64,000 bases of DNA from an uncultured Gammaproteobacteria bacterium (GTDB taxonomy: Bacteria > Pseudomonadota > Gammaproteobacteria > Steroidobacterales > Steroidobacteraceae): positions 21,159 through 85,158 of the forward strand of contig CAVQAE010000009.1 of assembly GCA_963710435.1 (NCBI GenBank), given 5' to 3'. The notes beneath the pieces were generated by a model. The model was not told the origin of the DNA, did no database searches, and saw only the letters and a list, made by a program, of their open reading frames with translations. Each line of letters starts with the position of its first letter. Position 1 is the first letter of the stretch. This document shows positions 4,301 to 63,062 of this stretch, in pieces. The translations under genes were made by a program, and so were the position numbers.

Positions 4301-4357
4301 GCACGACGTTCATATTTCTGTGTGCTCCTCCAGATTCAGATTTGCGCACGACGTTCA
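4301..4357. promoter_or_regulatory. Two direct copies of GCACGACGTTCA (operator-like half-degenerate GAAC-N3-GTTC sites) in the TBDR/PPOX divergent region
   Basis: The copies are at 4301-4312 and 4346-4357, 45 bp apart. Confidence 0.4.
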
Positions 4358-4402
4358 ATGACCGCAAGATAGCCGGCGCCGACCGCCGCGAGTGTGGTTT
4401 AA

Positions 4403-5443
4403 ATGAATAACGCAAACTCTTTGCCCCTGCCGGTGCGACAGCTGATCGAATCGGCGATCGCCATGGAATTCGCCACCGTGAGCGCGGCCGGGATACCCAT
4501 CGACACGCCGGCGTTCTCGTTCTGCGATGCGGCCGGCGCAAGCATCGACGTCGCCACGGGACTTGCGTATCCGGCGAAGGCCGAACGCGCGCGTCGCAAT
4601 CCCAAAGTGGGCCTCTTGATCGAAGGCCTACCGGGCGAGCCCGTGGTGGCGATCGCCGCGCACGCCGCCGTGCGCGATGCCGACATTCAAGCCAATGTCG
4701 ATCGCTACATCGGCGAGACGGTCGCCTATTTCGAGATGTACTCCGGCGGCAACCCCTGGTCGGTCGCACGGCAAGCGACCTGGTACTGGTCGCGGATTTT
4801 TATCCGTTGTCTGCCGCAGCGGATTCTCTGGTGGCCCGATGCCGCCGCCATGGACGAGCCCGCGCGCGAATGGCGGGCGCCTAAGGACACCGTGCCGCCG
4901 CGCTCGGATCCCGCGCCGCGGGGGGCGATCAGCCCGGCGCCGCAATGGCCTGCGCGTCCCTGGCAGGAGCGCGTCAGCGACGCGCTCGCACTCGGGTTGC
5001 CGCATCTCACGGTGTTGGATGGGGAAGGCTATCCCCTGCCCGTGCGCGCTCGCCGGGTGGAGCGCACCGAGGGCGGGTTCTCCCTGGAAGTGCCCGCTGG
5101 CGCTCGTTGGGTGACGGCCGGCCCGGCATCACTCTGCTTCCTCGGCACGATCAACTTCATCGGACAGCTCGAGCCGCGAGCGGGCAACGCGCTGTTTCGC
5201 GTCGCGAGAGTCCTTCCCACATTACCCACCGTCGCGGATCCCCGCGAGCTGTGGCAGCCGAGCGAGGGGACGCGTCAGGCGTTCACGAGCCGGCTCGCTC
5301 GGGAGCTCGAGCGGCGCGGACTGCCGATGCCGCAGGTCCCGATGACGCCTCCCGCCCCGACACCCGGGTCGCTGCGCAGAGCCGAGCGGGTCGCGCAGCT
5401 CGTCGCCGAGGCACAAACGCGCCAAGCCGCCGATCTATCTTGA
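4403..5443 (+). CDS. Pyridoxamine-5'-phosphate-oxidase-like (split-barrel flavin-binding) family protein
   Basis: This is a 346-aa ORF with normal amino-acid composition. The N-terminal half (LPVRQLIESAIAMEFATVSAAGIPIDTP...NPKVGLLIEG) resembles the PPOX/flavin-reductase-like fold. The assignment rests on family resemblance only. Confidence 0.5.
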   Translation: MNNANSLPLPVRQLIESAIAMEFATVSAAGIPIDTPAFSFCDAAGASIDVATGLAYPAKAERARRNPKVGLLIEGLPGEPVVAIAAHAAVRDADIQANVDRYIGETVAYFEMYSGGNPWSVARQATWYWSRIFIRCLPQRILWWPDAAAMDEPAREWRAPKDTVPPRSDPAPRGAISPAPQWPARPWQERVSDALALGLPHLTVLDGEGYPLPVRARRVERTEGGFSLEVPAGARWVTAGPASLCFLGTINFIGQLEPRAGNALFRVARVLPTLPTVADPRELWQPSEGTRQAFTSRLARELERRGLPMPQVPMTPPAPTPGSLRRAERVAQLVAEAQTRQAADLS

Positions 5444-5458
5444 AACGGAGGAACACCC

Positions 5459-6421
5459 ATGAGCACGGTACGCTTCGATGGCAGAGTGGCAGTAATCACC
5501 GGCGCGGGCGGCGGCCTCGGGCGCACCTACGCGCTCGACCTCGCGCAACGCGGCGCCGCGGTTGTCGTGAACGATCTCGGCTGTACCTACGACGGGCAGG
5601 GCCAGTCCGCCAACATGGCCGATCACGTGGTGGAGGAAATCCGCCGCGCGGGCGGCAAGGCGGTCGCATCGTATGACTCGGTGAGTTCCCCCGCCGGTGG
5701 CACCGCCATCGTCGCGAAAGCGATCGAGTCGTTCGGGCGGATCGACGTGCTCATCAACAATGCCGGCACGTTGCGCAATGCGCCCTTCGACGAGCTGCCG
5801 GACGCGACCATCGATGAGATGATCAACGTGCATCTCAAAGGCGCCTTTCACGTCACTCGGGCCGCCTTTCGGCTGATGAAGCAGCAGCGGTATGGGCGCA
5901 TTTTGTTCGCCTCCTCGGCCGCCGGCATGCTCGGCAACGCCACGCAGAGCGCGTACGGCGCGGCCAAAGCGGGCCTCGTCGGCCTCATGAACGTGCTCTC
6001 CCAGGAGGGCCGCGCCTATAACGTCCTCTGCAATGCGCTGCTGCCCACCGCGCAGAGCCGGATGGGCGCCGCCATGCCCGCCGACCAGATGCAGGATATC
6101 GAAGTGCTGTTCGGTGCCGCCGCCGCACAGGTCGGCAACGCGGGCACGCCGCCCTTCGTCACGCCTCTGGTCACTTATCTCGTGAGCGAGGCGTGCCAGT
6201 CGACCCATGGCATCTACTCCGCAAGTTTGGGCCGTTATGCGCGCGCCTTCCTCGCGGTGAGCGATGGTTGGGTCGGACCGCGCGACGCGCCGCCCACGGC
6301 CGATGACATCGCGGCGCATTTCGGCGAGATCTCGAGCACGAAGAGTTTCTGCGTGCCCGAGAGCCTCCGCGATGAGTTCGTCGAGATCATCAAGCTCCTC
6401 AACAGGCATCAGCCCGCTTGA
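5459..6421 (+). CDS. SDR oxidoreductase, MFE-2-type (3R)-hydroxyacyl-CoA dehydrogenase-like
   Basis: It has the Rossmann motif VITGAGGGLGRTYALDLAQRGAAVVVNDLG and catalytic Tyr-x3-Lys in SAYGAAKAG. The N-terminus parallels the dehydrogenase domain of multifunctional enzyme type 2. Confidence 0.8.
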   Translation: MSTVRFDGRVAVITGAGGGLGRTYALDLAQRGAAVVVNDLGCTYDGQGQSANMADHVVEEIRRAGGKAVASYDSVSSPAGGTAIVAKAIESFGRIDVLINNAGTLRNAPFDELPDATIDEMINVHLKGAFHVTRAAFRLMKQQRYGRILFASSAAGMLGNATQSAYGAAKAGLVGLMNVLSQEGRAYNVLCNALLPTAQSRMGAAMPADQMQDIEVLFGAAAAQVGNAGTPPFVTPLVTYLVSEACQSTHGIYSASLGRYARAFLAVSDGWVGPRDAPPTADDIAAHFGEISSTKSFCVPESLRDEFVEIIKLLNRHQPA

Positions 6422-11740: not shown

Positions 11741-11795
11741 TGCTTTCCCCCGGATTTGGCACCATGATAACCGGCGCTATTGCGTGCGACAATGG

Positions 11796-11806
11796 GAACG
11801 GTGTAC
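11796..11806. promoter_or_regulatory. Operator-like site GAACGGTGTAC
   Basis: It lies in the divergent region between the SDR operon (start 11740) and the LLM gene (11852). It has one mismatch to GAAC-N3-GTTC. Confidence 0.4.
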
Positions 11807-11851
11807 AACTTCCTGTACGATCAGCTCCGGTGAAGTTGGGAGGGGCCGGCA

Positions 11852-13671: not shown

Positions 13672-13694
13672 GTTCTACAAAATGAACATCGTTC
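13672..13694. promoter_or_regulatory. Composite operator GTTC-N8-GAAC-N3-GTTC
   Basis: The sequence is GTTCTACAAAATGAACATCGTTC. All three half-sites are perfect. It lies in the divergent region between SDR 13616 and NMO 13855. Confidence 0.55.
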
Positions 13695-13817: not shown

Positions 13818-13840
13818 AAACAACGTTCTATTATATGAAC
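13818..13840. promoter_or_regulatory. Composite operator AAAC-N3-GTTC-N8-GAAC
   Basis: The sequence is AAACAACGTTCTATTATATGAAC, 15 bp upstream of the NMO ATG. The spacer TATTATAT is -10-like. Confidence 0.5.
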
Positions 13841-14893: not shown

Positions 14894-16102
14894 TCATGGT
14901 GGGATTTCCCATTCGAGGGGCAGGTATTTCACGCCATTCACGGGACCGCTTTCGGTGCGCGGCCGCTCGCCGGGTATGATGCGAAAGTCGGCGATGCGTG
15001 TCAGCCACTCCTCGAGAAACACCTTGAGCTCGAGCCGCGCCAGGAATGAGCCGGGACAGCGGTGCGGGCCCTCACCGAAGGCCGCGTGGCGCTGCGCGCC
15101 GCGGTTGAAATCGACCCGCAGCGGGTCCGGGTAGCGGCGCTCGTCGAGGCCATGCAAACTCTTCGGCAAGAGGATCTGCTCGCCGGCATGAAACTCGATG
15201 TCCCGGTACTGCAGGTCGCGCGTGATCAGGCGCGCCGTGTTCGGAATGCCGAAGCGCCGCAGAAATTCCTCGATGGCGCGCGGGATGATTGCCGGATTCT
15301 CCCGCAGTTGCACCCGCAGCGCCGGCTGCTCGGCGAGGCAGCGCGTCGTGAATGACAGCGCGGCGGCCACCGTATCGAGGCCGCCGAAGATCACGTTCAC
15401 CATCATGCCCGCGAGCTCGGCCTCGCTGATCGGCCGGCCGCTGATCTGCGCGTTCACCATCCGGCTGAACAAGTCGGGCCCCGGATGACGCCGGCGCTCG
15501 ACGATCCATTGCTGCGTGTACTCCTGCAGGCCGCTGTATGCGGCGATCCGGTCTTCCTCCGAGTGGGGGCGGACGCTTTTCTCGGTAAGCTCGAGCAGAT
15601 GCTCGCGGTCCGTGAGAGGCAAGTCCACCAACCGCAAGAACGTGACGATGGGCAGGCGCTTCGCGAAGGCCTCCACGAACTCACACTCGCCCCGCGGCAC
15701 GATGTCATCGAGCAATTGCCGGGTCAGCTCACGCAGCGAGCCCTCGAGCGCCTGCATCGGCTTGGGGCCGAATGCCGGTGAAATCACGGCGCGCAATGGA
15801 CCGTGCTCCGGCGGATCGAACTCCAACGGCGCGAGATGCGGCTGATCGGGCATGATCGGCACCGTGATGCGCCGATAGGAGAAGCGGTCATGATCGGTCT
15901 GCATCACGTCGATATCCTCGGCGCGGGTGGCGATCCAGTGTCCGCCGTGCCGGGTTGACCAGATGATGTCCGGCCCCTCATGCAGCCGCTTCCAGGCCAG
16001 GTGCACGTCCTCCTCATGGCCCGGCGGTGCGCGATAGTCGAAATCGGTGACGAGATGCGCCGGCACGTGGGCGGGTGCGGACGCGGCGATGACGGCGCTC
16101 AT
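14894..16102 (-). CDS. Cytochrome P450, CYP101 (P450cam)-like class I (paralogue of 9715..10920)
   Basis: It has FGEGPHRCPGSFLARLE, GGLDTV and HVPAHLVTDFDY. It overlaps the upstream gene by 4 nt. Confidence 0.9.
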   Translation of the reverse strand: MSAVIAASAPAHVPAHLVTDFDYRAPPGHEEDVHLAWKRLHEGPDIIWSTRHGGHWIATRAEDIDVMQTDHDRFSYRRITVPIMPDQPHLAPLEFDPPEHGPLRAVISPAFGPKPMQALEGSLRELTRQLLDDIVPRGECEFVEAFAKRLPIVTFLRLVDLPLTDREHLLELTEKSVRPHSEEDRIAAYSGLQEYTQQWIVERRRHPGPDLFSRMVNAQISGRPISEAELAGMMVNVIFGGLDTVAAALSFTTRCLAEQPALRVQLRENPAIIPRAIEEFLRRFGIPNTARLITRDLQYRDIEFHAGEQILLPKSLHGLDERRYPDPLRVDFNRGAQRHAAFGEGPHRCPGSFLARLELKVFLEEWLTRIADFRIIPGERPRTESGPVNGVKYLPLEWEIPP

Positions 16103-16587
16103 TGTGAAGACTCCTCGGTCGCAATGAATTGCCAGCGGCGCTTGGGAGCGCAGCCGGGACGAAACTCGATGACTTGAACATCAATCCAGACGGGCAGGAG
16201 GTAGCGAAAATAAAACGCATGGGTAGAGGTCTGCGGCAGCTCCAGATCCTCGAGCACCCGGATCTCCATGCGTGGGTCGCGAGCCGCCACGGCGCGGCAT
16301 TCCTTCAAGATCTCGTCGACGACGGTGCGGTCCCGCACATGGAAACCTAAGTGATCGTCGCCGCGGATGATCGCCGGGAAATCGTGCTCTGCGACGTAGA
16401 TGAACTGGCTCCCCTCGGGATCGGTCGTGAGGAACAGATGATCGGGGCCGAACGCCTCGACTTGGGTGACGCCAAACCCGAGCGCCTCTTGATAGAAGGC
16501 CAGGAGGTCATTCCGCATCTGGCCCAGCGTGTTGCGCGGGATGGTCACCTGCAAATGATTCAGCCGCAAACCGTCGATGTGTTTCAT
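16099..16587 (-). CDS. VOC (glyoxalase/bleomycin-resistance/dioxygenase) family protein
   Basis: MKHIDGLRLNHLQVTIPRNTL...FYQEALGF...HLGFHV shows the beta-alpha-beta-beta-beta module pattern. I chose the start at internal ATG 16587 because the 29-aa N-terminal extension of the track ORF is Arg/Ala-rich. Confidence 0.55.
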   Translation of the reverse strand: MKHIDGLRLNHLQVTIPRNTLGQMRNDLLAFYQEALGFGVTQVEAFGPDHLFLTTDPEGSQFIYVAEHDFPAIIRGDDHLGFHVRDRTVVDEILKECRAVAARDPRMEIRVLEDLELPQTSTHAFYFRYLLPVWIDVQVIEFRPGCAPKRRWQFIATEESSQ

Positions 16588-16612
16588 AACCCCTCGCTCG
16601 TCGCGCCCACCC

Positions 16613-17536
16613 TCACGCGGGGTCGGTCTTGCCCGCCCAGCGCAACTTGACCATGCCGTCGCCAAACGGCTCATCGCGGTTCTTGAGCGCCACCTTCAAG
16701 CCGTGCGCGGCCATGTCGGCTTTGAACTGCGTGCGCCGCGGTCCCTTGGCGAGGTGGCTGCGGGCGTCGAGCTCCGCGACGAGCCGCTGCATCGTGCGCG
16801 CTCCGGCGAGCTCGAGCGCGAGATTCACCGCGCGCTTGTGCGCCGACAACAGCTCGCTGTCGACGGCGCCGACGCGACGCGCCAGCTCGTCCACCGCGGC
16901 ATCGAGCTCGGCCGCGGGCACCGCATCGAGCACCAGCCCGAGGCGCGCGGCGTCGCGTCCCCACAGGCAGTCTCCGGTCATCAGCATGCGCTTCGCCCAT
17001 TGCGGACCCAAGTGATAGAGCCACATGTTCATGGGCGGCGTGCCGTTGGCCCGCACGGCCGGAAAGCCGATCTTGGCATCTTCGGCGGCGAGCACCATGT
17101 CGCTCATGAGCGCGAGATCCGTCCCGCCGGCGAGACAGTTGCCTTGCACTCGGGCAATGACGGGCTTATGAATATCGAACAAGGTCAGGGTTTCGCGCTG
17201 GGTCTGCTCGAGGTTCCAGCAGTCATCGTCCAGGTTGCCCGCGCTCGTGCGGTACTTGATCTCCTCGCGGTCTTCGGCCTGCGCCGCCGCATCGGCGGCC
17301 CGTCCAGCGTACGCGCCCGCGAGATCGTAGCCTGCGCAAAAATCCTTCCCGGCGCCGCCGAGCACGATGACGTTGACATCGAGGCGCGCATCGGCTTCCA
17401 GCAGGCCATCTCGCAACTCGGCCACCATGGCGGGGCTCAGCGCGTTGCGCTTCTCCGGCCTGTTGAGCGTGATGCGTGCAACCGGCCCCTGCACCTCGAA
17501 GAGGATGTGCTCGGTGGTTCTTAAATATTTGCCCAT
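16613..17536 (-). CDS. Enoyl-CoA hydratase/isomerase (crotonase) family, long (~300 aa) form
   Basis: Motifs are ITLNRPEKRNAL and GAGKDFCAGYDL (oxyanion-hole region). It has a paralogue at 51583..52485. Confidence 0.85.
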   Translation of the reverse strand: MGKYLRTTEHILFEVQGPVARITLNRPEKRNALSPAMVAELRDGLLEADARLDVNVIVLGGAGKDFCAGYDLAGAYAGRAADAAAQAEDREEIKYRTSAGNLDDDCWNLEQTQRETLTLFDIHKPVIARVQGNCLAGGTDLALMSDMVLAAEDAKIGFPAVRANGTPPMNMWLYHLGPQWAKRMLMTGDCLWGRDAARLGLVLDAVPAAELDAAVDELARRVGAVDSELLSAHKRAVNLALELAGARTMQRLVAELDARSHLAKGPRRTQFKADMAAHGLKVALKNRDEPFGDGMVKLRWAGKTDPA

Positions 17537-17561
17537 ATGAGATTCTCCGAAATAGCTACGC

Positions 17562-19124
17562 TCACCCGCCCGTGACGCTGAATTGTCGTCGCAAAGCCAC
17601 TTTGTTGCTCTTGCCGCTCGGCAGCCGGGGAAGCACGGGCACGAACTCGATGCTCTTCGGGCATTTGTAGCCGGCGATCAGCCCGCGGCAATGCGCGATG
17701 AGATCGCTCGCCGCAACGCCCTGCCCCGGCTTTAAGACCACGACCGCCTTTACCGCCTCACCCCATTTGAGGTCGGGCACCCCGATCACGGCGACATCGG
17801 CCACGGCGGGATGCGCCATTAGCGCGCCCTCCACTTCCAGGCTGTAGACGTTCTCGCCGCCGCTGATGATCATGTCCTTTTTCCGGTCGACGAGGTACAC
17901 GAAGCCATCCCTGTCCATGCGCCCAAGGTCCCCTGTGTGCAGCCAACCGCCGCGCAGCGCCTCGATCGTCGCCGCCGAGTTGTTCCAGTATCCGATCATG
18001 TTCTGCCGTGAGCGCAGACAGATCTCACCGACGCTGCCGGCCGCGACCTCCACATCCTCCCCATCGACAATCTTCACGGCCGTGTCGTAGATCGGTTGGC
18101 CCACGGAGGCGAGCCGCGCGAGGTCCTCCTCCGGTCCGTCCACGCGGTGATAGGCCTTGCGCAGACTCAAGCCCGAGCCTTCGGTCTGGCCGTAGCCATT
18201 GATGAGGATCGGGCCGAAGCGGCGCAGCGCGCGCTTGAGTGTCGTCAGCGGCATGGGAGCCGCCGCATAGTTGATGGTGCGCAGCGAGCTGAAGTCGTAG
18301 CGCTCGATGTCGGGCAGATCGAGGACTTGTTGCATCAGGGTCGGTGCGAGATGCAGCTGGCTGATGCGTTCGCGCTCGACCGTCTCGGCCACCACCCGCG
18401 CATCGAAGGAGCGCTGCAGCACCAGCGTCCCGCCCCGCATCGTCATGCTGTAGCCCTGTGAGCGCGCGCCGATGTGGAACAAGGGCATGGCGAGCAAGAT
18501 TCGACCGCCCAAGTCCGCATCGAGCTCCATGGCCCATGCCTCACCCAACGCGAGCATCGCCTCGTGGGTGATCATGACCCCTTTGGGACGCCCCGTAGTG
18601 CCGCTCGTGTACATGAGCGAGTGCACGTCCGAGCCTATCGGCGCCATGCGCGGACCTGTATCGGAGCCACTTTCGAGCAGGGCCTCATACCGAACGGCCC
18701 AGTCGGGCGCGGGATCGTCGATCGCGACGTAATGTTGAATCGCGAGCTCGGCGCGCAGCCCCGCCAGCACGCTCGCATACTGCGATTCGAACAGCAGCAC
18801 CTTGGGCGTTGCGTCCTTGAGAATCCAGGCAATCTCCGGCGGTGCGAGTCGAAAATTGACGGGCGTGGCGATGTAGGGCGCGACCTCGCAGCTGCCGTAG
18901 ACCTCGTGATACTCGGGGCAATTCATCGCGAATATCGCGACGCGGTCCTGGGATTTGAGGCCGAGTCGATCGAGCGCGCTCGCCAGCCGCCGCGACCGTC
19001 GCGCAAACTCAGCGAAGGTCGCGCGGCGCTCGCCGAAGATCCGGTGAAGCTCCTCGGCGTGCAACACGGCGTTGCGCTCGACGAGATCCGCCATCGACTG
19101 CAGAACGCGACCCCGCGGGCTCAT
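17562..19124 (-). CDS. AMP-forming acyl-CoA synthetase (ANL family)
   Basis: Motifs are LMYTSGTTGRPKGV, GYGQTEG, WLHTGDLG and a C-terminal SGKSNKVALR. I placed the start at ATG 19124, 17 nt after the upstream stop; ATG 19094 is an alternative. Confidence 0.85.
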   Translation of the reverse strand: MSPRGRVLQSMADLVERNAVLHAEELHRIFGERRATFAEFARRSRRLASALDRLGLKSQDRVAIFAMNCPEYHEVYGSCEVAPYIATPVNFRLAPPEIAWILKDATPKVLLFESQYASVLAGLRAELAIQHYVAIDDPAPDWAVRYEALLESGSDTGPRMAPIGSDVHSLMYTSGTTGRPKGVMITHEAMLALGEAWAMELDADLGGRILLAMPLFHIGARSQGYSMTMRGGTLVLQRSFDARVVAETVERERISQLHLAPTLMQQVLDLPDIERYDFSSLRTINYAAAPMPLTTLKRALRRFGPILINGYGQTEGSGLSLRKAYHRVDGPEEDLARLASVGQPIYDTAVKIVDGEDVEVAAGSVGEICLRSRQNMIGYWNNSAATIEALRGGWLHTGDLGRMDRDGFVYLVDRKKDMIISGGENVYSLEVEGALMAHPAVADVAVIGVPDLKWGEAVKAVVVLKPGQGVAASDLIAHCRGLIAGYKCPKSIEFVPVLPRLPSGKSNKVALRRQFSVTGG

Positions 19125-19140
19125 GGCGTGCTGGACCCTT

Positions 19141-19950
19141 CTAGGCGTTGGTGTCGGTGGGGAACTCAGGCGGGCGCTTCTGCAGGAACGCATCGATCCC
19201 CTCGCGGCCCTCGGGGCCCGCGAAGCCAATGAATTCGAGCGCGAGCGAGGTATCGAAAATCGGCCCCGCCTGCCGCAGCCAGTGATTCAGCGCGTACTTG
19301 GTCCAGCGCGTGGCCGCGGGCGCGAGTCCGGCCAGGCGCGTGGCGATGGCGACCGCCTTCGCCTCGAGCTCCGCCGCATCGACCGCGAGCGAGACGAGGC
19401 CCATCTGCGCGGCCTGCTCGCCGGTGAAGGGTTCGGAGAGCAAAAGATAATACTTCGCGCGCGCCATGCCACAGAGCAGCGGCCACAGAATCGTGGCGTG
19501 ATCACCCGCCGCGACGCCGATCTTCGCGTGACCGTCGGAGAATTGCGCATCCTTGGCGGCAATCGAGATATCGGCGAGCAGCGCCGCGGCGATACCCGCG
19601 CCGACCGCCCACCCCGACACGGCACTCACGATGGGCTTCGAGCAGTTGATGATGTTGTAGACGAGATTGCGCGACTCCTTCATGGCCTGCATGCGCAGCT
19701 CGTAGTCATCGCACACCTTGCGCTCGTGGTTGAGATCGCCGCCCGCCGAGAAGGCCTTGTCGGAGCCACGGATCAGCGCGACTGACACCGTGGGATCCGC
19801 ATCGACATCCTTCCAGATCTCCGACATCTCGCGGTGCAGAGTCGCCGTCATGGCATTGAGCTTCAAGGGCGAGGCGATGGTGATGCGCAGCACCCGGGGG
19901 TCCGGCCGATCGAATTTGAGTTGCTCATAGCGGGCGTAGCGATCAGTCAT
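19141..19950 (-). CDS. Enoyl-CoA hydratase/isomerase family protein
   Basis: It has GSDKAFSAGGDL. I chose ATG 19950 because a GGAG lies 7 nt upstream; the track start is TTG 19986. Confidence 0.8.
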   Translation of the reverse strand: MTDRYARYEQLKFDRPDPRVLRITIASPLKLNAMTATLHREMSEIWKDVDADPTVSVALIRGSDKAFSAGGDLNHERKVCDDYELRMQAMKESRNLVYNIINCSKPIVSAVSGWAVGAGIAAALLADISIAAKDAQFSDGHAKIGVAAGDHATILWPLLCGMARAKYYLLLSEPFTGEQAAQMGLVSLAVDAAELEAKAVAIATRLAGLAPAATRWTKYALNHWLRQAGPIFDTSLALEFIGFAGPEGREGIDAFLQKRPPEFPTDTNA

Positions 19951-19987
19951 GGCAATCTCCAAGGAAAAAATGAGGTCGTACAGCAAA

Positions 19988-22129: not shown

Positions 22130-22137
22130 CGGCTACG

Positions 22138-22932
22138 TCACTCGCCGGTAAAACTCGGCGTGCGTTTGTCGCGGAAGGCGCTGACCGCCTCTCGATGATC
22201 GGCGCTGAGGTTCGACAGCGCCTCATAGGCAAAGGAGGCCTCGAGCACCGTGGCGAGCACCTGCTTCAAACCGACATTCACGGACAGCTTGGTCCATTGA
22301 ATAGCACGCGCCGCGCCGGCGGCCAAGCGCTGTGCGAACTCATCCACGGTGCGATCCAACTCCTCGGCCGGCACCGAGCGATTGATGAGGCCAATCCGCG
22401 CCGCCTCCTCACCGGTGAGGAGATCACCCGTCAACAGGTACTCCTTGGCGCGCGCATAGCCGATCAGCTGCGGCCAGATCACGGCGCCGCCGTCACCCGC
22501 CGTGAAACCGACTTTGACATGCGGATCGCCGATCTTGGCATGATGGGCCGCAATGATGATGTCGCAGAACAGCGCAATCGTGGCGCCGAGGCCGACCGCG
22601 GCGCCGTTCACCTTGGCGATGATCGGCTTCGGACAATCGAGGATCGAGGAGATGAGTCGCTTGCCCGCTATGAGTCCGTGCATGAACAGGGCCGGACGGT
22701 CGATGAGCGTCTGCATGTGCTCGATGTCCCCACCCGCGCTGAAGGCGCGGCCAGCACCGGTCAGTATGAGGACGCGGGTCGCATCGTCGATGGCAGCGTC
22801 GATGAACAATCGCTCGCATTCGACGTGCAGGTCATCGTCAAAGGCGTTCATGCTGTCCGGACGATTGAAGGTGGCATGCAGCACCGCGCCGTCCCGGTGC
22901 AGCTTGATGGCTTTGTAGCTGGCGAAATCCAT
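22138..22932 (-). CDS. Enoyl-CoA hydratase/isomerase family protein
   Basis: It has LTGAGRAFSAGGDIEHM. I chose the start at ATG 22932, which is preceded by GGGGAGGA. Confidence 0.8.
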   Translation of the reverse strand: MDFASYKAIKLHRDGAVLHATFNRPDSMNAFDDDLHVECERLFIDAAIDDATRVLILTGAGRAFSAGGDIEHMQTLIDRPALFMHGLIAGKRLISSILDCPKPIIAKVNGAAVGLGATIALFCDIIIAAHHAKIGDPHVKVGFTAGDGGAVIWPQLIGYARAKEYLLTGDLLTGEEAARIGLINRSVPAEELDRTVDEFAQRLAAGAARAIQWTKLSVNVGLKQVLATVLEASFAYEALSNLSADHREAVSAFRDKRTPSFTGE

Positions 22933-22965
22933 ATGAGTCCTCCCCAGAAGCGCGGCCGTCGCTGC

Positions 22966-22988
22966 GTTCATTTATTCAAACGGTATTC
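22966..22988. promoter_or_regulatory. Composite operator GTTC-N8-AAAC-N3-ATTC
   Basis: The sequence is GTTCATTTATTCAAACGGTATTC, just upstream of the crotonase-led minus-strand operon (start 22932). Confidence 0.45.
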
Positions 22989-25821: not shown

Positions 25822-25859
25822 CGTTTGGATTATGGTACCTCGCCTGCCCCGTCTTCGCG

Positions 25860-47119: not shown

Positions 47120-47145
47120 GACTCAAAAGGACTCAAGGTAAGCAG

Positions 47146-48770: not shown

Positions 48771-48793
48771 GTTTAAAAGCTTGAACGGCGTTT
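48771..48793. promoter_or_regulatory. Composite operator GTTT-N8-GAAC-N3-GTTT
   Basis: The sequence is GTTTAAAAGCTTGAACGGCGTTT followed by AGAATATAA, in the divergent region between SDR 48716 and AMP-ligase 48860. Confidence 0.5.
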
Positions 48794-51582: not shown

Positions 51583-52485
51583 TCATGACGATTCCCTCGA
51601 AGCCACGCGGACCATGCCATCGCCGAACGGCGCATCGCGATTCCGCAAGGCGGCCTTGAGGCCCTGCTCGGCCATATCCCGCTTAAACTGCGCGCGTCGC
51701 GGACCCACCGAAAGATGCGCGCGAGCGTCAAGCTCGGCATCGAGACGCTGCAGTGTCTTGGCGCCCATCAACTCGAGTCCCAGGTTGATCGCGCGTTTGT
51801 GTGCCGCGAGCAGCTCGCTATCCACGCAGGCAATGCGCCGCACGAGCTCTTGCGCCTCGGCGTCCAAGCGGGCGGGTGGATACGCATCGAGCACCAGACC
51901 GACTCGGGCCGCATCGGTGCCCGATAGACGGTCCCCCGTGAACATGAGTCGCTTGGCCCATTGTGGACCCAGATGGTAGAGCCATAGATTGCTCAGCGGC
52001 ATGCCGTTGGCGCGCACGGCCGGAAAGCCGATGCGCGCATCCTCAGAGGCGATCACGATGTCGCATGCGAAGGCGATGTCGGTGCCCCCGGCAAGACAGT
52101 TGCCGTGCACCTTGGCGACAATGGGCTTGTGCACCGTCCAGGGCAGAAGGAGCGAGTCCTGCTGACGTTCCATGTACCAGCAATCATCGTCGAAGCTGGT
52201 CACCATGCCGCGATAGCGGTCTTCGTCACCGTGGGCTTGTTCCTCCGCGACGCCCGCATAGCGACCGGCGAGGTCAAAACCCGCGCAGAAATCTTTCCCG
52301 GCGCCTTCGATCAGAAGGACACTGACGTCGCGCTGATCGTCGGCTTCGAGCAGCGCCTGATGAAACTCACGCAGCATGATCTGACTGATCGCGTTGCGCT
52401 TTTCCGGACGGTTTAGGGTGATAGTGGCAATGCGATCCTGAACCTTGAATTGAACGTGTTCGGTCGACTGAAGCCATTTATTCAT
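51583..52485 (-). CDS. Enoyl-CoA hydratase/isomerase family, long form (paralogue of 16613..17536)
   Basis: It has ITLNRPEKRNAI and GAGKDFCAGFDL. By eye it is about 60% identical to the 16613 product. I chose the start at ATG 52485. Confidence 0.85.
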   Translation of the reverse strand: MNKWLQSTEHVQFKVQDRIATITLNRPEKRNAISQIMLREFHQALLEADDQRDVSVLLIEGAGKDFCAGFDLAGRYAGVAEEQAHGDEDRYRGMVTSFDDDCWYMERQQDSLLLPWTVHKPIVAKVHGNCLAGGTDIAFACDIVIASEDARIGFPAVRANGMPLSNLWLYHLGPQWAKRLMFTGDRLSGTDAARVGLVLDAYPPARLDAEAQELVRRIACVDSELLAAHKRAINLGLELMGAKTLQRLDAELDARAHLSVGPRRAQFKRDMAEQGLKAALRNRDAPFGDGMVRVASRESS

Positions 52486-52625
52486 CGGCGGGCTCTCCGC
52501 AATCCAGTGCAAAGCGGTTGAAGTATCTGCGGCAAAACCTGGACTTCGGGCAGGCGGGGGGCGCAAAGGTCATGCCCGGCCGAATCGAGCCCGCGCCGTG
52601 CCCACCGCACACCATGGCGCGCGTC

Positions 52626-53801
52626 TCAGGCCGCGGCCTTCGATTCCCGCCAGCACTGCTGCGCGGCAGGCGTTTGTGCGAGCTTGTCGATGTCAAAGCC
52701 GAAAATGCGCTGCGCGTTGCCTGCGACGATGGCCCATTGGTCCTCTTTACTCAAATGCGCCAGGAGCTTCGCAAGATGCACGCGGGTGTGGGGCCACGTA
52801 CCCTCGGTATGAATGTCATCAGAGCCGAATGCCAGGTTGCGTACGCCGACCTGACCCACACAGCTGATCTCGGTCGCATCGAGGGGGCCCGCTGCGAAGC
52901 CTTGCCGTGCCCACTGTTCGCTTGGTTTCATCTTGAGCTTGTGCTCTGGATTGACCGTGGGTGCCGCAAAGTATCGATCCAGTTGGACGAGGATCGGCAC
53001 GATCCAAGTAGAGCCGCTCTCGATGTAGCCGAATTTCAAGTTCGGATGCCGTTCCGGAACGCCGGAGAGAAGCAGGTACTTGAGCGTTGAATGATGCAGG
53101 CCTTCGATGTCGAGAAACAGCAATGCTTCCCAGCCGCGCTCCGTTCCGTCCCAGCGCCACAACGGCTTTTCGCGGCCCACGGACGAATGCCACACCGCGG
53201 CCATACCGCGCTCGTCAAGCGCCTGCCACATGGGCTCATACATCCGGTGGTTGTAATCGGGTAGCGACGGATCCGCTTGCCGCGGTGTCGGGGGTAGGTG
53301 GATTGCCCGCAACCCATGCTCCCAGGCCATGCTGATTTCCTTGATCACGGTCTCCTGCCCAGCGGCGAGAGACACGGCGAGGGCTGCGGTAAAGCGATGC
53401 GGCGCCGAGGCCGTGTAGTCCTTGAACCAGCGGCAGTAGCTCTGAGAGATCTCGTGCTGCAGCTTGGGGTCGCTGGTAATGGCGCCGAAGCCATCCACCA
53501 GCAACTCGGCGGCGACGCCGTCCGCATCGATGCGCGCGAGGCGCTCGGCGCACGTCAAGACCTGGTGGTAACGGGTAAGATCCACCTCATGAAGATCGTT
53601 GGCAGCCTGCCAGGCCATTTCGGCACCCGCATACATGAGATCGGCGAAGTAACGGCTGCCGCCCGTGAACGTGCGCTGGCCCTCCGCGGTCGCCTCATCA
53701 AAGGCCCGATGACACTTTGCGGGCAGCCACGGTTTGAGGTCTAGGAAACACTCAGTGTGTCCGTCCAGCGAGATGACGACGTTTTCCTGGCTCATACGCA
53801 C
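52626..53801 (-). CDS. Amidohydrolase-2 (metal-dependent hydrolase/decarboxylase) family protein
   Basis: The 391-aa product has N-terminal ISLDGHTE and C-terminal LAFGSDDIHTEG, which fit the TIM-barrel amidohydrolase pattern. The assignment rests on resemblance. Confidence 0.6.
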   Translation of the reverse strand: MRMSQENVVISLDGHTECFLDLKPWLPAKCHRAFDEATAEGQRTFTGGSRYFADLMYAGAEMAWQAANDLHEVDLTRYHQVLTCAERLARIDADGVAAELLVDGFGAITSDPKLQHEISQSYCRWFKDYTASAPHRFTAALAVSLAAGQETVIKEISMAWEHGLRAIHLPPTPRQADPSLPDYNHRMYEPMWQALDERGMAAVWHSSVGREKPLWRWDGTERGWEALLFLDIEGLHHSTLKYLLLSGVPERHPNLKFGYIESGSTWIVPILVQLDRYFAAPTVNPEHKLKMKPSEQWARQGFAAGPLDATEISCVGQVGVRNLAFGSDDIHTEGTWPHTRVHLAKLLAHLSKEDQWAIVAGNAQRIFGFDIDKLAQTPAAQQCWRESKAAA

Positions 53802-53840
53802 TCCTCAAGGCAGATGGGGGCTCGTGCAAGATCGATCGGG

Positions 53841-54626
53841 CTAGCGGCCGCCGGTACCCTTGATCGGCGGGGTCTGCAGAGCGCCCACCGCCAGTCCTTC
53901 GAGCGCCAGGCCGAAGGCGAGATCGCGCTGAAAAGATTCTTTGATCGGCTGAGTGAACAAGAGCCGCGAATACCGCAGCGATTGCACAGGCGCGGCAGCC
54001 AATTTGTCGGCAAGCTCCCGGGCGCGTGGCATGAGGCGGTCGGGAGCGAGAATTTCGTGGACGATGCCGAAACGATGCGCGTCCTTGACCGAGAGTATCT
54101 CCGAAGTCAGCAAGTAATAGTGTCCGCGAGAGTGACCCAGAAGTAGATTCCATACGGAGTGACAGCCGTCGCCGGGAACGACGCCGATGCCCATGTGGCT
54201 ATCGCGGAATGTAGCCGTATCGGCGGCGAGCACGATATCGGCGAGCACCGCAAGCTCTGAATGCAAGAGCGCCGGGCCGTTCACGGCCGAGATCACGGGC
54301 ACGTCCACCTCGAGCAGATTTAGGAGCATGTCGCGCCCCTCGCGTGAAATGCGATACCAGTACTCGGGGCTGTAGCTTTGCGAGTACTCCGCCGAATTAC
54401 GCTCCTTGCAAAAGGTATCTCCCGTACCGGTGAGGATGAGCACCTTGTTGTCGCGGTCGTGTGCGATGTCGTAGAACGCATGCCCGAGCTGCTCGTGGAT
54501 GGATCCGGGATCCGAGCCCCATTGCAAGGGGCCACCGTTGGTGTGCAAGGTCATCTCGAGAACGCCATCGCGGCGCTCGAGGCGAATGTTGCGATAGCTT
54601 TCGGCGTATTGCTGGAGAGTTTTCAT
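53841..54626 (-). CDS. Enoyl-CoA hydratase/isomerase family protein (divergent)
   Basis: It has the crotonase-fold pattern LERRDGVLEMTLHTNGGPL...ILTGTGDTFC. Confidence 0.7.
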   Translation of the reverse strand: MKTLQQYAESYRNIRLERRDGVLEMTLHTNGGPLQWGSDPGSIHEQLGHAFYDIAHDRDNKVLILTGTGDTFCKERNSAEYSQSYSPEYWYRISREGRDMLLNLLEVDVPVISAVNGPALLHSELAVLADIVLAADTATFRDSHMGIGVVPGDGCHSVWNLLLGHSRGHYYLLTSEILSVKDAHRFGIVHEILAPDRLMPRARELADKLAAAPVQSLRYSRLLFTQPIKESFQRDLAFGLALEGLAVGALQTPPIKGTGGR

Positions 54627-54766
54627 GGGTGTTGCGAGGGCTGGTTTCTATGGATTGTCGCTCATGCCATCCGTGTCACCAAGAGCGTACGGGTTAAGGC
54701 GATCGTTGAACTCAGGTTAAGCGCCCTCGGACGCACGAGGCGTCAGCTGAGCGCGCCACTCGGGCG

Positions 54767-55777
54767 CTATACCGTCGAGGCGTAGAGCACCCAGTCAAGG
54801 ACCGGTTCGGGTTCCTTCGGCTCCGCGCGCTCCGCCCCCGTGCGCACATGCAATTTCAAGAGCATGCCACGCTCGAGCGGCAGTGCCTCGAGGACGTCGA
54901 ATGCCGTGCTGAGCCGATCCTGCTCGAAGACGGGGCCGATGTGGTCACAGCGTTCCCACGCCAGCACAGTGACGAGATCCGGCAGCGCACGGGTGAGCTG
55001 CGCAAAGGCGATTCCAATGGTATGGCCGCCATAGACCAGGCGCTGTCCGGTGTGCGACGCCGTGCCATCCAAGTGAGCCATCGCCATGTTGGTGGTCAAA
55101 CGCACGAGTTCCGGTGCGCACGTGACGGTGTCGCGCGCCGCGATCCGGACGTGCTCACCGGCTTGAGGCCGCGGGGCCGGCGGCAGCGAGCGCGGGAAAG
55201 CGCCGATGTCCCAGGCCGGGACGGACGCGAGGATTTCTTCGCGCGCAGGATTCGCACCCAGCTCGAGGATGTCGGCGTCCGCGCCCGCGGATGCCGCAGG
55301 GTGCGTGCGGCAGGGAATCATGGGAAAGCGCCAGGCGGTCATGACCTCGGCGCCCTGTTGATTGACGGTGCGCATCTCGAGCGCGACCACCCCAGTGGGT
55401 GCGCGCCCCGGCTTCGATTGGTTGCGGCGGGCGCCAACCACGCGGGTGCGGGTGTAGAGCGTGTCGCCGAGGAACGTGGGCCGCTTGAGCTGCACGCCGC
55501 GATAGGCGAGGTTGGCTTTGACCCGCTGCGAGGCCCAGGTGCTCTGACCGATGGCGATGTTGATCGCGAGCAAGGGATGCGCCAGTGGCGTGGGCGCACC
55601 CGTCACGCGCGCGGCGGCCGCATGATCGAGCGGCAAGCGCATGCGATCGCCCGTGAGTGCCTGGTACCAGGCCGCATGGGCGGTGGTGAGCGTGATGCCG
55701 GGCGAGTCGAACTCGATACCGGGTTCGAGATCTTCGAAGCTGGGCCCTTCAACGACCCGATGGAGCGGCTCGTTCAT
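54767..55777 (-). CDS. MaoC-like acyl dehydratase, double hot-dog (mesaconyl-CoA-hydratase-like)
   Basis: The 336-aa product has FEDLEPGIEFDSPGITLTTAHAAWYQALTGDR and a second hot-dog half. It overlaps the upstream GMC gene by 4 nt. Confidence 0.65.
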   Translation of the reverse strand: MNEPLHRVVEGPSFEDLEPGIEFDSPGITLTTAHAAWYQALTGDRMRLPLDHAAAARVTGAPTPLAHPLLAINIAIGQSTWASQRVKANLAYRGVQLKRPTFLGDTLYTRTRVVGARRNQSKPGRAPTGVVALEMRTVNQQGAEVMTAWRFPMIPCRTHPAASAGADADILELGANPAREEILASVPAWDIGAFPRSLPPAPRPQAGEHVRIAARDTVTCAPELVRLTTNMAMAHLDGTASHTGQRLVYGGHTIGIAFAQLTRALPDLVTVLAWERCDHIGPVFEQDRLSTAFDVLEALPLERGMLLKLHVRTGAERAEPKEPEPVLDWVLYASTV

Positions 55778-57378
55778 CGGTTATCCTCCAGGATCAGATC
55801 GGCGCCGCGCGCCGCGGCAGCCATGACCGGCGCGTTGGTATTGCCCGACACCAGTGTGGGGAACGAAGACAGATCGACGACTCGCAGCGCCTGCACACCG
55901 CGCACGCGCAAGCGCGCATCGAGCACCGCGCGCGCATCGACGCCCATGCGGCAGGTTCCGGCGGCGTGATACCCCGCCTGACCCTTTTGCTTGAACGCCT
56001 CGAGAATTTGCGCATCGCTCTGCACGCCGGCGCCCGGCGTCGTTTCTTCACCGATGAACGGCGCCAGGGCGGGCTGCGACATCCAGCGCCGCATCCAGCG
56101 CAGCAGCCCCACCGCGGTGCGGCAGTCGGCCTCGGCGGAGAGATAGTTCGGACGGATCAGCGGCAACTCCAGGGGATTCGCCGAGCGCGCCATGACGCTG
56201 CCGTGACTCTCCGGCCGCAGCGGGTAGCCGAATACCTGCATGCCGGGAAAGTGCTCGAACGCGAACTCCTGCGCGCTGAAGTCGAGCGAATAGGGGGCCA
56301 TCATGATTTGCGCGTCGGGACGATTGAGCATGCCGTCGGTGCGAATGAAGCCGCCGACGTCATAGGAGCCTGCGGCCATCTCGCCGCCGCGGGTCAACAG
56401 GTAGCGCGCCGTGTTGAATAGCAGCGGGAGCCCCGAAAAGGCGCGATTGAGCCCGCGACCGCGACGCAGCCGGTATTGCAGAAACAGGAGCAGGTGCTCG
56501 CGCATGTTCTGCCCGACGTCGGGACTGTCGACCGCAACGTCGATGCCGAGCGAGCGCAGGTGTCCGGCGGGGCCGATCCCGGAGAGCTGCAGCAAATGGG
56601 GGGAGTTGAGTCCGCCGGCGGACACGATGACCTCGCGTCGCGCGCGAAACTCTAACGCGCCGTCGCGTTGGGTCATGACGCCCACCGCGCGCCGGTCTTC
56701 GAGGGCCACCCGCGTCACGGTCGTGTCGGTGAGAACTCTGAGATTGGAGCGACGCCGAGCCGGCGTCAGAAACGCCGTGGCCGCGCTTTGCCGGCGTCCG
56801 TTCTTGATATTCCAGCTGAGGTAGGCGATGCCCTCCTGTTCGGGCCGGTTAAGATCCTGCTTGACCGGCAGACCCATCGCCTCGCCGGCCGCGAGCACCG
56901 CATCCCCCAGGGGGTAATGCGCCGAACGCGGGGTGATGCCGAGCGGGCCGCCGCCGCCGCGCACCTCGTCGGCACCGAGGGAATGATCCTCCATGCGGCG
57001 GAAGTAGGGCGATAGGCTCTGCCAGCCCCAGCCACTCAAACCGGCGCGTTCCCAAGCGTCATAATCCTCGGGCTGGCCTCGCATGTAGATCATGCCGTTG
57101 ATGGAGCTGGAGCCGCCGAGCATCTTGCCGCGCGCCCAATACTGGGGTCGATTACCGGTCGAAGGCTCGGGCTCCGTGGCGAAAATCCAGGCGTGGGTCG
57201 GGTCTGAGAGGAGCTTGCCGAAGCCCTTGGGCAGATGGATGAGGGGATTGCGGTCGTCGGGCCCGGCTTCGATCAGCAACACGCTGTGGCGGCTGTCCTC
57301 GCTCAGCCGCGCGGCGAGCACGCACCCGGCGGAGCCGGCGCCGACGATGATGTAGTCGAAGGTTTCAAGGTCGCTCAT
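55774..57378 (-). CDS. GMC family oxidoreductase (choline/alcohol dehydrogenase-like)
   Basis: Motifs are FDYIIVGAGSAGCVLAARLSED and GGSSSINGMIY, plus a C-terminal active-site region. Confidence 0.9.
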   Translation of the reverse strand: MSDLETFDYIIVGAGSAGCVLAARLSEDSRHSVLLIEAGPDDRNPLIHLPKGFGKLLSDPTHAWIFATEPEPSTGNRPQYWARGKMLGGSSSINGMIYMRGQPEDYDAWERAGLSGWGWQSLSPYFRRMEDHSLGADEVRGGGGPLGITPRSAHYPLGDAVLAAGEAMGLPVKQDLNRPEQEGIAYLSWNIKNGRRQSAATAFLTPARRRSNLRVLTDTTVTRVALEDRRAVGVMTQRDGALEFRARREVIVSAGGLNSPHLLQLSGIGPAGHLRSLGIDVAVDSPDVGQNMREHLLLFLQYRLRRGRGLNRAFSGLPLLFNTARYLLTRGGEMAAGSYDVGGFIRTDGMLNRPDAQIMMAPYSLDFSAQEFAFEHFPGMQVFGYPLRPESHGSVMARSANPLELPLIRPNYLSAEADCRTAVGLLRWMRRWMSQPALAPFIGEETTPGAGVQSDAQILEAFKQKGQAGYHAAGTCRMGVDARAVLDARLRVRGVQALRVVDLSSFPTLVSGNTNAPVMAAAARGADLILEDNR

Positions 57379-57444: not shown

Positions 57445-57467
57445 GAACAGCGTACGCAAATGTGAAT
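57445..57467. promoter_or_regulatory. Composite operator GAAC-N3-GTAC-N8-GAAT
   Basis: The sequence is GAACAGCGTACGCAAATGTGAAT, preceded by TATAAT at 57428-57433, in the divergent region between the GMC and AMP-ligase genes. Confidence 0.5.
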
Positions 57468-59030: not shown

Positions 59031-59053
59031 GTTCGAATATGCTAACAGCGTTC
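59031..59053. promoter_or_regulatory. Composite operator GTTC-N8-TAAC-N3-GTTC
   Basis: The sequence is GTTCGAATATGCTAACAGCGTTC, 53 bp upstream of the luxE-like ATG. Confidence 0.5.
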
Positions 59054-61864: not shown

Positions 61865-61906
61865 CGCACACGCCCGAGGCGGCTGCGCCGCGCGGTTGAG
61901 CTGTGC

Positions 61907-62956
61907 TCAGGCCTCGAGTGAGGCCAAGTCGATCACGAATCGATATTTCACATCGTTACCCAGCACGCGCTCGTAGGCCTCGTGCACCTGCTGCATCGCG
62001 ATACATTCGATGTCCGCGACGATGCCGTGCGTGCCGCAGAAGTCGAGCATTTCCTGCGTCTCCGGCAGGCCGCCGATCATCGAACTCGCGAGCCGCCGGC
62101 GCCGCGCGGCAAGCACCATCGCCGAAATCGCGAGGGGCTGCGCCGCCATCCCCATTTGCAGGAGCGTCCCGTCGCGCGCCAAGAGGGCGAGGTAGGCATT
62201 GACGTCATGCGCCGCGGACACGGTATCGAGGATGAGATCGAAACTGCCGGCCTGTCGTCGCAGCTGGTTGGCATCGCTGGATAGCACCACCTCATGCGCA
62301 CCGAGTTGTCGGACATCGTCGAATTTGCCCGGGGAACTGGTGAAGCCGACCACGTGGGCCCCCATGGCGCGCGCCAGTTTCACCCCCACGTGACCGAGGC
62401 CGCCGATGCCGACCACGCCGATCTTCATCCCCGGGGCCGCCTGCCAATGCCGCAACGGCGAATACATGGTGATGCCGGCGCAGAGGAGCGGCGCCACGGC
62501 GGCCGGGTCGAGCCGCGGCGGGACCCGCAAGGCGAAGCGCTCATCGACCACATAATTGTTGGAATAGCCGCCGTGGGTGGGACGTTTGCTGCCGCGCTCG
62601 AGACCGGCGTAAGTCGGCGTCGGATGCTCATCGCAGAAGTGCTCCTCACCCGCCTCGCAAGGACTGCAGCGGCGGCATGAATCCACCAGGCACCCGATGG
62701 CGGCTCGATCCCCGATCTTGAATTTGCTGACCTTCGCGCCGATGCGTGCGACGCGACCGACGATCTCGTGGCCGGGCACGACCGGAAACCGCGTCATGTG
62801 CCAGTCATCGTTGACGTAGTGGATGTCGGAGTGGCAAATGCCACAATGCGTCAGATCGAGCACCACATCGTGCTCGCCCGGGTCGCGTCGCTCGAACTCG
62901 AACGGGGCGAGGCGTCCCTTCGCTTCGCGAGCGGCCCAGCCGTGAGCGTTGATCAT
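61907..62956 (-). CDS. NAD(P)-dependent alcohol dehydrogenase, cinnamyl-alcohol-dehydrogenase (CAD/YjgB)-like
   Basis: Motifs are CGICHSDIHYV, GHEIVGRV and VVGIGGLGHVGV. I chose the start at ATG 62956 (MINAHGWAA). Confidence 0.85.
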   Translation of the reverse strand: MINAHGWAAREAKGRLAPFEFERRDPGEHDVVLDLTHCGICHSDIHYVNDDWHMTRFPVVPGHEIVGRVARIGAKVSKFKIGDRAAIGCLVDSCRRCSPCEAGEEHFCDEHPTPTYAGLERGSKRPTHGGYSNNYVVDERFALRVPPRLDPAAVAPLLCAGITMYSPLRHWQAAPGMKIGVVGIGGLGHVGVKLARAMGAHVVGFTSSPGKFDDVRQLGAHEVVLSSDANQLRRQAGSFDLILDTVSAAHDVNAYLALLARDGTLLQMGMAAQPLAISAMVLAARRRRLASSMIGGLPETQEMLDFCGTHGIVADIECIAMQQVHEAYERVLGNDVKYRFVIDLASLEA

Positions 62957-63051
62957 TGCACGGAACTCCATTTGGCCATGCCGGCCAGCAACTGCGCGCG
63001 CGGCCACTATGCGGCAGATTTGACACGCCGAACCCGCGCATTAAGATACTC

Positions 63052-63062
63052 GAACAGTGTTC
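63052..63062. promoter_or_regulatory. Operator GAACAGTGTTC (perfect)
   Basis: It lies in the divergent region between the CAD-like ADH (62956) and the QOR-like gene (63081), and is followed by A7. Confidence 0.55.

Follow-up and report, generated by a model that had tools for sequence, protein, structure and literature searches.

In phyla other than the Proteobacteria, lipid and steroid regulons are run by TetR-family proteins such as KstR, KstR2 and FadR. KstR and KstR2 follow a repressor logic in which one short palindromic operator is placed before many operons of actinobacterial steroid catabolism, and the KstR operator is a 14-bp sequence, TnnAACnnGTTnnA, with a two-base centre (N2). To our knowledge, little is firmly established in Proteobacteria about which regulators control the catabolism of steroids and alicyclic lipids, and a literature search linking IclR proteins to steroid catabolism did not reveal any IclR-type regulator of such genes. 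The present analysis deals with a repeated operator-like element in a 64-kb stretch of DNA (the window, 65% G+C) from an uncultured gammaproteobacterium of the Steroidobacteraceae, which contains an island densely packed with lipid/steroid-type catabolic genes according to a gene map built from Pfam/NCBIfam scans and from the G+C content at third codon positions. The element consists of the palindromic core GAAC-N3-GTTC, usually accompanied by a third box 8 bp away, and it precedes about 21 of the 24 transcription units of the window (about 45 genes), as anticipated by the original prediction that one operator is common to almost every unit. This regulon signal is real, statistically strong and evolutionarily conserved, and its features are best explained as a new, unusually large case of a three-box operator class of the IclR family, a mechanism class that is itself already known. 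To judge from sequence comparisons, the element most probably serves as operator for the island's own IclR-family regulator, whose gene is located at 39760-40626.

Two arrangements of similar boxes have been described for IclR-family motifs (Suvorova and Gelfand 2021, PMC8222616). The first is GKTYCRYW3-4RYGRAMC, including the subgroup NGTYCRAW4TYGRACN, equivalent to GTYC-N8-GRAC, and the second is TGRAACAN1-2TGTTYCA. Both are combined in the three-box sites of alternating direction used by 32 orthologous groups, for which PcaU, PobR and HmgR are experimental precedents, and tandem binding at 18-22 bp fits tetramers (PMC8222616). In the same work, SDR genes (short-chain dehydrogenase/reductase, COG1028) were over-represented in the NGT-12-ACN subgroup and more than half of the published IclR regulogs contained 10 COGs or fewer. 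The element found here has the layout GTYC-N8-GRAC plus GRAC-N3-GTYC, that is, a 23-bp element with three boxes alternating in direction. It resembles the sites of PcaU, PobR and HmgR in having one pair of boxes of the NGT-12-ACN type and another inward-facing pair, GRAAC-N3/4-GTTYC, as well as in the presence of a site in the regulator's own promoter and in the SDR genes, which are common in this regulon too. Its outer boxes are 19 bp apart, compared with the 18-22 bp given for tetramers. Both component pairs stand out in the sequence data detailed below, since the outward pair with an A/T-rich 8-bp spacer (GTYC-RAW4TY-GRAC) is enriched in the window and ranks top in the relatives, and the overlapping inward pair GAAC-N3-GTTC is the top motif; across genomes, the motif is tied to the regulator gene by its presence in the upstream region of this gene and by its density around it.

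Several differences from the published examples were also observed. The boxes here read TGAAC(G), the targets are lipid/steroid-type genes and not aromatic or sugar-acid genes, and with 15 operators and about 45 genes the regulon lies at the large end of the IclR regulogs. The recognition helix of the island regulator, PKSSLLNLLRPL, was not found in the portion of the supplements of Suvorova and Gelfand (2021) that was covered. The KdgR/IclR palindromes (TGRAACA-N1-2-TGTTYCA) share with the element the odd length and the inward-facing GRAAC boxes, but the boxes here have four to five bases (GAAC, not GAAAC), there is an extra box at N8 and the target genes are others. The likeness to KstR and KstR2 lies in the repetition of one operator before a large gene set with KstD, P450s, igr-like genes, acyl-CoA dehydrogenases (ACADs) and enoyl-CoA hydratases (ECHs), and in a presumed repressor logic; the differences are the putative IclR regulator, the N3 core, the third box and the proteobacterial host. 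The KstR operator itself does not fit the window, because the centre here has three bases and the enriched combinations do not include GAAC with a spacer of 2. A 13-bp core nearly identical to that of the element, TGAAC-N3-GTTCA, is the published operator motif of BioQ (PMC3398298, the only paper found in a literature search for the exact motif); BioQ is a TetR protein acting on biotin genes in Actinobacteria (Corynebacterium), whereas no TetR gene is present in the window. The IclR protein of a dicarboxylate study based on transposon sequencing with random barcodes (RB-TnSeq) was also considered and belongs to a different system.

The exact core, GAACNNNGTTC, is present in five copies in the whole window versus 0.89 expected, a number reached by none of 100 shuffles. 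Three copies are intergenic (13684-13694, 43343-43353 and 63052-63062), in agreement with the original prediction, and two that had been left out of it lie within genes (3661 and 61149). When one mismatch was allowed, the whole window contained 26 cores versus 20.6 expected, which is not significant; 13 of these 26 fall in non-coding DNA, which represents 8.6% of the window, and the comparison with coding DNA proposed together with the original prediction therefore gave a core 10.7 times denser in non-coding DNA (Fisher p = 5e-8). To avoid circularity, an unbiased palindrome screen of the non-coding DNA was carried out with all 256 four-base half-sites at spacers 0-8 (2,304 combinations) and 200 dinucleotide-preserving shuffles. 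GAAC-N3-GTTC ranked first of the 2,304 combinations (13 versus 1.75 expected, z = 8.7), followed by its own frame-shifted versions and then by GTTC-N8-GAAC (7 versus 1.6), so that a formal test also supports the enrichment claimed originally. A scan with a 17-bp matrix gave 15 top matches of 14.4-21.9 bits at the loci already noted, and all coordinates proved to be correct when re-derived from the sequence. All these matches are intergenic or 5' of genes, with 14 of them in the non-coding set and the other one (13818) falling only inside an over-long open reading frame (ORF), and the best match clearly within a gene reached 11.8 bits. The weaker matches at 29670 (13.5 bits), 46150 (13.6), 6420 (13.1) and 11877 (12.7) were not counted as operators. 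Among the cores described originally as having one or two mismatches, the positions hold and a single correction is needed, since 41251 has three.

The third box is everted with respect to the core (GTTC-N8-core or core-N8-GAAC) and is found at exactly N8 in 13 of the 15 sites. Such boxes occupy 14 of 30 flanks, compared with 2.3% at control spacings (p = 1e-15), and spacings 2-7 and 9-15 are at background. Boxes on both sides were found at one site of the window only (operator 3), the remaining three-box sites being one-sided. The extended sites listed in the original prediction are correct, but the N8 boxes at 4301, 4346 and 11796 had escaped notice; the fixed 3/8 spacing, from which a multimeric regulator had been proposed, is upheld both statistically and in the related genomes. 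Together, the window and the related loci yielded 116 unique three-box elements with the consensus tAttT-GAACGnCGTTC-AnAAATnT-GAACg, that is, a 19-bp palindrome with one adjoining extra half-site and a spacer consensus a.aaAT.T. The third box has no preferred orientation toward the regulated gene (66 versus 67 of 117), the single-direction cases of the window being mixed, and no GTTC-N8-GAAC without its N3 partner was found at the promoters that lack a site (parA, LysR). The perfect cores at 43343-43353 and 63052-63062, each located in a divergent region, lack a third box, and nearly all degenerate cores have an N8 box, a pattern that suggests either compensation or two binding modes.

According to the Pfam/NCBIfam scans, the window encodes just two regulators, the IclR protein and a LysR protein (50479-51447). 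The IclR gene (39760..40626, plus strand) encodes 288 amino acids, and its ATG start at 39760 was confirmed by an exact protein match. The product contains the Pfam domains HTH_IclR (E = 7e-8) and IclR_C (E = 1e-34), the nearest solved structures are IclR-family proteins, and many orthologues with 36-97% identity were found. Its best-scoring model is that of PcaR/PcaU/PobR (NCBIfam TIGR02431), with 137.3 bits against a cut-off of 284.75 bits, and the protein is therefore a relative and not a member of this group. A contig scan with the recognition-helix peptide retrieved 79 related loci via the IclR gene, from Steroidobacteraceae and other gammaproteobacterial metagenome-assembled genomes (MAGs), Paraburkholderia, Trinickia, Rhodocyclaceae, Comamonadaceae and a few Alphaproteobacteria. 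Clustering of the ORFs of these loci revealed the IclR protein as the only regulator-sized family in common (70 loci).

The motif follows this gene closely. A site is present in the own upstream region of most IclR orthologues with at least 60% identity, and overall in 30 of 68 orthologues versus 164 of 1,158 other genes of the related loci (p = 1e-8). There are 3.2 sites per 10 kb in the first 1 kb around the IclR gene, and this density drops about five-fold at a distance of 7-10 kb, where it is 0.5-0.8 per 10 kb. In Steroidobacteraceae-like genomes the IclR promoter is conserved as TAGACA (-35), N7, GAACnnCGTAC, TAATAT (-10), two bases and GAAC, with diverging flanks. A Steroidobacteraceae MAG (L002) is syntenic with positions 29995-41052 of the window at 79-84% DNA identity, which points to a Steroidobacteraceae-like bacterium as the source of the window. 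This MAG has an IclR promoter identical to that of the window from the -35 through the -10 box, and at the ACAD promoter (operator 8) the block from the -35 through the third box is conserved between both genomes and the flanks have diverged.

Beyond the IclR promoter, the motif is enriched in the non-coding DNA of all three groups of related loci and kept at orthologous promoters, as the original prediction would have it. Around IclR orthologues it recurs in 76 loci from Steroidobacteraceae, Paraburkholderia and other Proteobacteria. For sites scoring 14 bits or more, the density in non-coding DNA is 12-15 times that in coding DNA, an enrichment that is probably understated because the gene calls in these loci are crude. 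Matrix matches in non-coding DNA exceeded those in shuffles in the three groups (39 versus 1.2, 43 versus 4.9 and 52 versus 6.1), and the N8 third box was present in 42 of 53, 29 of 61 and 50 of 74 sites, respectively. An unbiased k-mer screen of 17 Steroidobacteraceae-like loci placed GTTC-N8-GAAC first (69 versus 17.8, z = 16.9), with GAAC-N3-GTTC also at the top (63 versus 18.3, z = 11.4). In plasmid pl1WSM5005 of the nodulating strain P. sprentiae WSM5005 (L081, 538073-568813), each of the five sites that score 14 bits or more is located in a divergent intergenic region of the RefSeq/PGAP annotation. This plasmid shares much of the gene set of the island, including P450-rubredoxin, NMO, CoA-transferases, ECHs, IclR, MFS, amidohydrolase and OYE genes, a gene for an EcKL protein annotated as 'ecdysteroid 22-kinase family' and the pair formed by a 454-aa hypothetical protein and LuxC.

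The core alone is ambiguous, because the TetR protein BioQ uses a nearly identical one. The site could accordingly belong to a BioQ-, KstR-, FadR- or PsrA-like sensor of acyl-CoA or steroids encoded outside the window, as suggested in the original prediction, the IclR gene being merely one of its targets. Such a sensor would match the TetR control of lipid and steroid regulons in other phyla, the spread of the sites across 60 kb and the TetR gene found in Paraburkholderia islands. However, the 64-kb window is devoid of TetR genes according to the scans, and none was found in Steroidobacteraceae-like loci up to 10 kb from the IclR gene. The TetR gene (AefR-like) occurs in Paraburkholderia-type loci only, and it lacks an upstream site of at least 13.5 bits in 17 of 18 cases, so that a co-occurring TetR gene usually preceded by the motif, as expected for a TetR operator, was found neither in the window nor in the IclR loci. 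Moreover, the fixed N8 third box of alternating direction is an IclR-family feature (we know of no third box for the BioQ operator), and the site density is highest at the IclR gene. The three-box geometry and the genomic association tip the balance to the IclR protein, which the original prediction had named as its other candidate and which is favoured by the site in its conserved promoter, the density peak and its place as the sole shared regulator family, and a TetR sensor encoded elsewhere is considered unlikely.

Recognition of the element by another regulator, either the LysR protein of the window or a paralogous IclR protein encoded elsewhere, appears quite improbable. The LysR gene is indeed present in the window, and two IclR paralogues of the clade exist in some genomes (locus pairs L003/L028, L048/L066 and L068/L069). 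Nevertheless, no site was found upstream of the LysR gene, the motif is not of the T-N11-A type of LysR proteins and LysR is not common to the related loci, and an IclR paralogue with the same recognition helix would amount to the same kind of explanation. The LysR gene, embedded in the regulon, appears to lie outside IclR control. Although the sites lie in A/T-rich stretches beside -10-like hexamers and GGAAC-type -35 boxes occur in promoters of extracytoplasmic function (ECF) sigma factors, it is hardly credible that the element is an A/T-rich compositional by-product, an alternative-sigma promoter element or a small repeated mobile element, since dinucleotide shuffles gave 1.75 versus 13 observed in the window and 1.2 versus 39 in the relatives, the element is palindromic and found in both orientations, box spacings of 3 and 8 are unlike the -35/-10 geometry, the flanks are unconserved between copies and the sites are retained at orthologous promoters in distant taxa.

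Some points weigh against the assignment of the element to the IclR protein. The distance between operators and the IclR gene reaches 35 kb, a long way for an IclR regulator that acts locally, and the core, being shared with BioQ, is not family-specific. All related loci were retrieved through the IclR gene, so the sample covers the motif near IclR genes, and the co-variation of helix and motif is uninformative because the helix peptide itself was used in the retrieval. The Paraburkholderia versions of the island, such as that of pl1WSM5005, encode TetR and MarR regulators as well. In addition, the matrix was trained on non-coding matches, a bias that does not affect the k-mer screens, and the promoter assignments considered below are consensus matches only.

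In a consensus promoter scan, the cores at 11796, 13684, 22978, 24359, 33163, 57445, 59043 and 63052 extend across the predicted start (-7..+8), and those at 39711 and 43343, plus 24359 and 57445 on the opposite strand, lie in the -35/-10 spacer (-25..-13). These predicted positions are those of a repressor. The original proposal that the 8-bp spacers act as -10 hexamers is convincing at the IclR promoter (conserved TAGACA-N18-TAATAT) and plausible at about half of the sites, but an A/T-rich spacer (RAW4TY) is intrinsic to this class of IclR operators. An IclR oligomer, possibly a dimer of dimers, would bind the operators and occlude the start, the -10 box or the -35/-10 spacer in about 15 promoter regions. 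Many of these are divergent, and in them a single operator could cover both promoters. The bound protein would thus keep about 21 transcription units repressed, as well as its own gene, and an intermediate of the pathway may release it from the operators. Our confidence in repression, as judged from these predicted positions, is lower than that in the identity of the regulator.

The operators are numbered along the window. Operators 1 (4289..4311, box GGTC-N8-core, 16.6 bits) and 2 (4334..4356, box ATTC-N8-core, 16.9 bits) lie between the gene of a TonB-dependent receptor (minus strand) and the operon of a 346-aa PNPOx-like protein (plus strand); their cores (4301-4311 and 4346-4356) are identical 11-mers, GCACGACGTTC, 45 bp apart, each with its own N8 box, and constitute a tandem operator pair. 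Operator 3 (11784..11818, GTGC-N8-GAACGGTGTAC-N8-GTAC, 15.0 bits) is located between an SDR/P450 operon (minus) and a luciferase-like monooxygenase gene (plus). Operator 4 (13672..13694, GTTC-tacaaaat-GAACATCGTTC, 18.5 bits), with both core and third box exact, is upstream of the SDR gene 12801-13616 (minus), and operator 5 (13818..13840, AAACAACGTTC-tattatat-GAAC, 14.7 bits) is upstream of the NMO/FabK-like gene (plus). Operator 6 (22966..22988, GTTC-atttattc-AAACGGTATTC, 14.9 bits) heads an 8-kb minus-strand operon (22971..14894) with genes for an ECH, an acyl-CoA synthetase, an ECH, an AMP-ligase, an ECH and a P450, and its core is at -4..+6 of a predicted TTGACC-17-GAAAAT promoter. Operator 7 (24347..24369, GTTT-atattatt-GAATACCATTC, 17.8 bits), between a beta-lactamase-family hydrolase gene (minus) and the EcKL/APH kinase gene (plus), has its core at -5..+5 of a predicted TTGACG-17-TATTAT promoter and at -25..-15 on the opposite strand. 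Operator 8 (33163..33185, GAATAACGTTC-atataagt-GAAT, 20.0 bits) separates the gene of a FadH-like old yellow enzyme (OYE; minus) from the ACAD/igr-like side-chain operon (plus).

Operator 9 (39711..39733, GAACGTTGGTC-taatatat-AAAC, 18.0 bits) belongs to the IclR gene's own promoter, with a predicted -35 box TGGACT at 39698 and a -10 box TAATAT at 39722. Operator 10 (41251..41273, AAATGACATTC-atatatag-GAAC, 16.3 bits), which has an exact third box, lies within the SDR/CoA-transferase/SnoaL unit of the minus strand and precedes the SnoaL gene, which starts at 41184 according to the gene calls of the related locus L001. Operator 11 (43343..43353, perfect core GAACGGCGTTC with no third box, 21.7 bits) is between an SDR gene (minus) and the KstD-E1 operon (plus), and operator 12 (48771..48793, GTTT-aaaagctt-GAACGGCGTTT, 18.5 bits) between SDR/SnoaL genes (minus) and an AMP-ligase gene (plus). 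Operator 13 (57445..57467, GAACAGCGTAC-gcaaatgt-GAAT, 14.4 bits), between the GMC-oxidoreductase operon 57378..51583 (minus) and an AMP-ligase gene (plus), is overlapped by predicted promoters of both strands. Operator 14 (59031..59053, GTTC-gaatatgc-TAACAGCGTTC, 14.9 bits) is upstream of the gene pair for a 457-aa protein and a LuxC acyl-CoA reductase (plus). Operator 15 (63052..63062, perfect core GAACAGTGTTC, no third box, 21.9 bits), between an alcohol dehydrogenase (ADH) gene (minus) and an ADH/QOR gene (plus), has its core at -2..+8 of a predicted TTGACA-16-TAAGAT promoter. An operator is absent from parAB, from the rep-like gene and from the LysR gene, which agrees with the earlier observation that the parA upstream region has none.

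The island encodes the TonB-dependent receptor, a sulfatase, two P450s, many SDRs, many SnoaL/NTF2 proteins, the NMO/FabK-like reductase, several ECHs, several AMP-ligases, an ADP-forming acyl-CoA synthetase and the FadH-like OYE. An igr-like block contains genes for two ACADs, an ECH, an SDR, a ChsH2-type OB protein, an Ltp2-type thiolase and a MaoC hydratase, and other genes code for a family III CoA-transferase, a GMC oxidoreductase, an amidohydrolase_2 protein, the LuxC acyl-CoA reductase and alcohol dehydrogenases. The KstD protein scored 854 bits, above the NCBIfam equivalog cut-off of 789 bits for 3-ketosteroid-delta-1-dehydrogenase. The designation of the island as steroid-type follows from KstD and the igr-like genes only, and it should be read as a prediction from gene content.

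The regulon is possibly a proteobacterial counterpart of that of KstR. A wider joint reading can be put forward tentatively: an IclR clade that is deeply conserved in Gamma-, Beta- and some Alphaproteobacteria, with the invariant helix PKSSLLNLLRPL, may act as master repressor of a large, horizontally shared island for steroid-like or alicyclic lipids that includes KstD, P450/rubredoxin, igr-like and LuxC/LuxE-like genes and the EcKL kinase, and so may be the functional counterpart of actinobacterial KstR. As part of this same proposal there would be two binding modes, with perfect palindromes bound without a third box and degenerate ones rescued by the N8 box, which could set promoter-specific thresholds. 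The finding supplies a candidate regulator, a precise 23-bp operator model and about 21 co-regulated transcription units, in a predicted regulon whose conservation extends from Steroidobacteraceae to plasmids carried by nodulating Paraburkholderia. It is directly testable and could help to find the substrate or the inducer, and the perfect two-box and degenerate three-box operators provide a natural series for studying the alternative dimerisation proposed for IclR proteins. As a testable candidate for the role of master regulator in the steroid-like catabolism of Proteobacteria, it is considered to be of moderate interest.

Some minor observations on the window were also made. The longest-ORF starts at 13774, 33180, 41259, 57443 and 63057 make their ORFs overrun operators; homologue gene calls and footprints place the true starts downstream of the operators (SnoaL 41184, ACAD about 33253), and the NMO protein probably starts at an ATG near 13860. 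No match was obtained in an Rfam scan of the window, so that the intergenic elements do not correspond to known RNAs, and a megablast comparison of 24 kb of the window with PLSDB gave short gene-level matches only and no near-relative plasmid. A partition/replication-like module without operator is located within the island at 25692-29533, encoding ParA (with an N-terminal helix-turn-helix), a RepB/ParB-like protein and a 318-aa protein, and the EcKL/APH kinase gene ends 18 bp upstream of parA. At 43414-47382, the KstD gene is followed by those for the 2-oxoacid dehydrogenase subunits E1alpha and E1beta and for a free-standing 78-aa lipoyl protein, with no E2 catalytic domain in this stretch. 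Finally, the gene of the 457-aa protein, which has no Pfam/NCBIfam match, adjoins that of the LuxC-type acyl-CoA reductase at 59106-61864 (25338-28183 in L081), and this pairing is kept in 27 related loci, which fits the original guess that the protein is LuxE-like.

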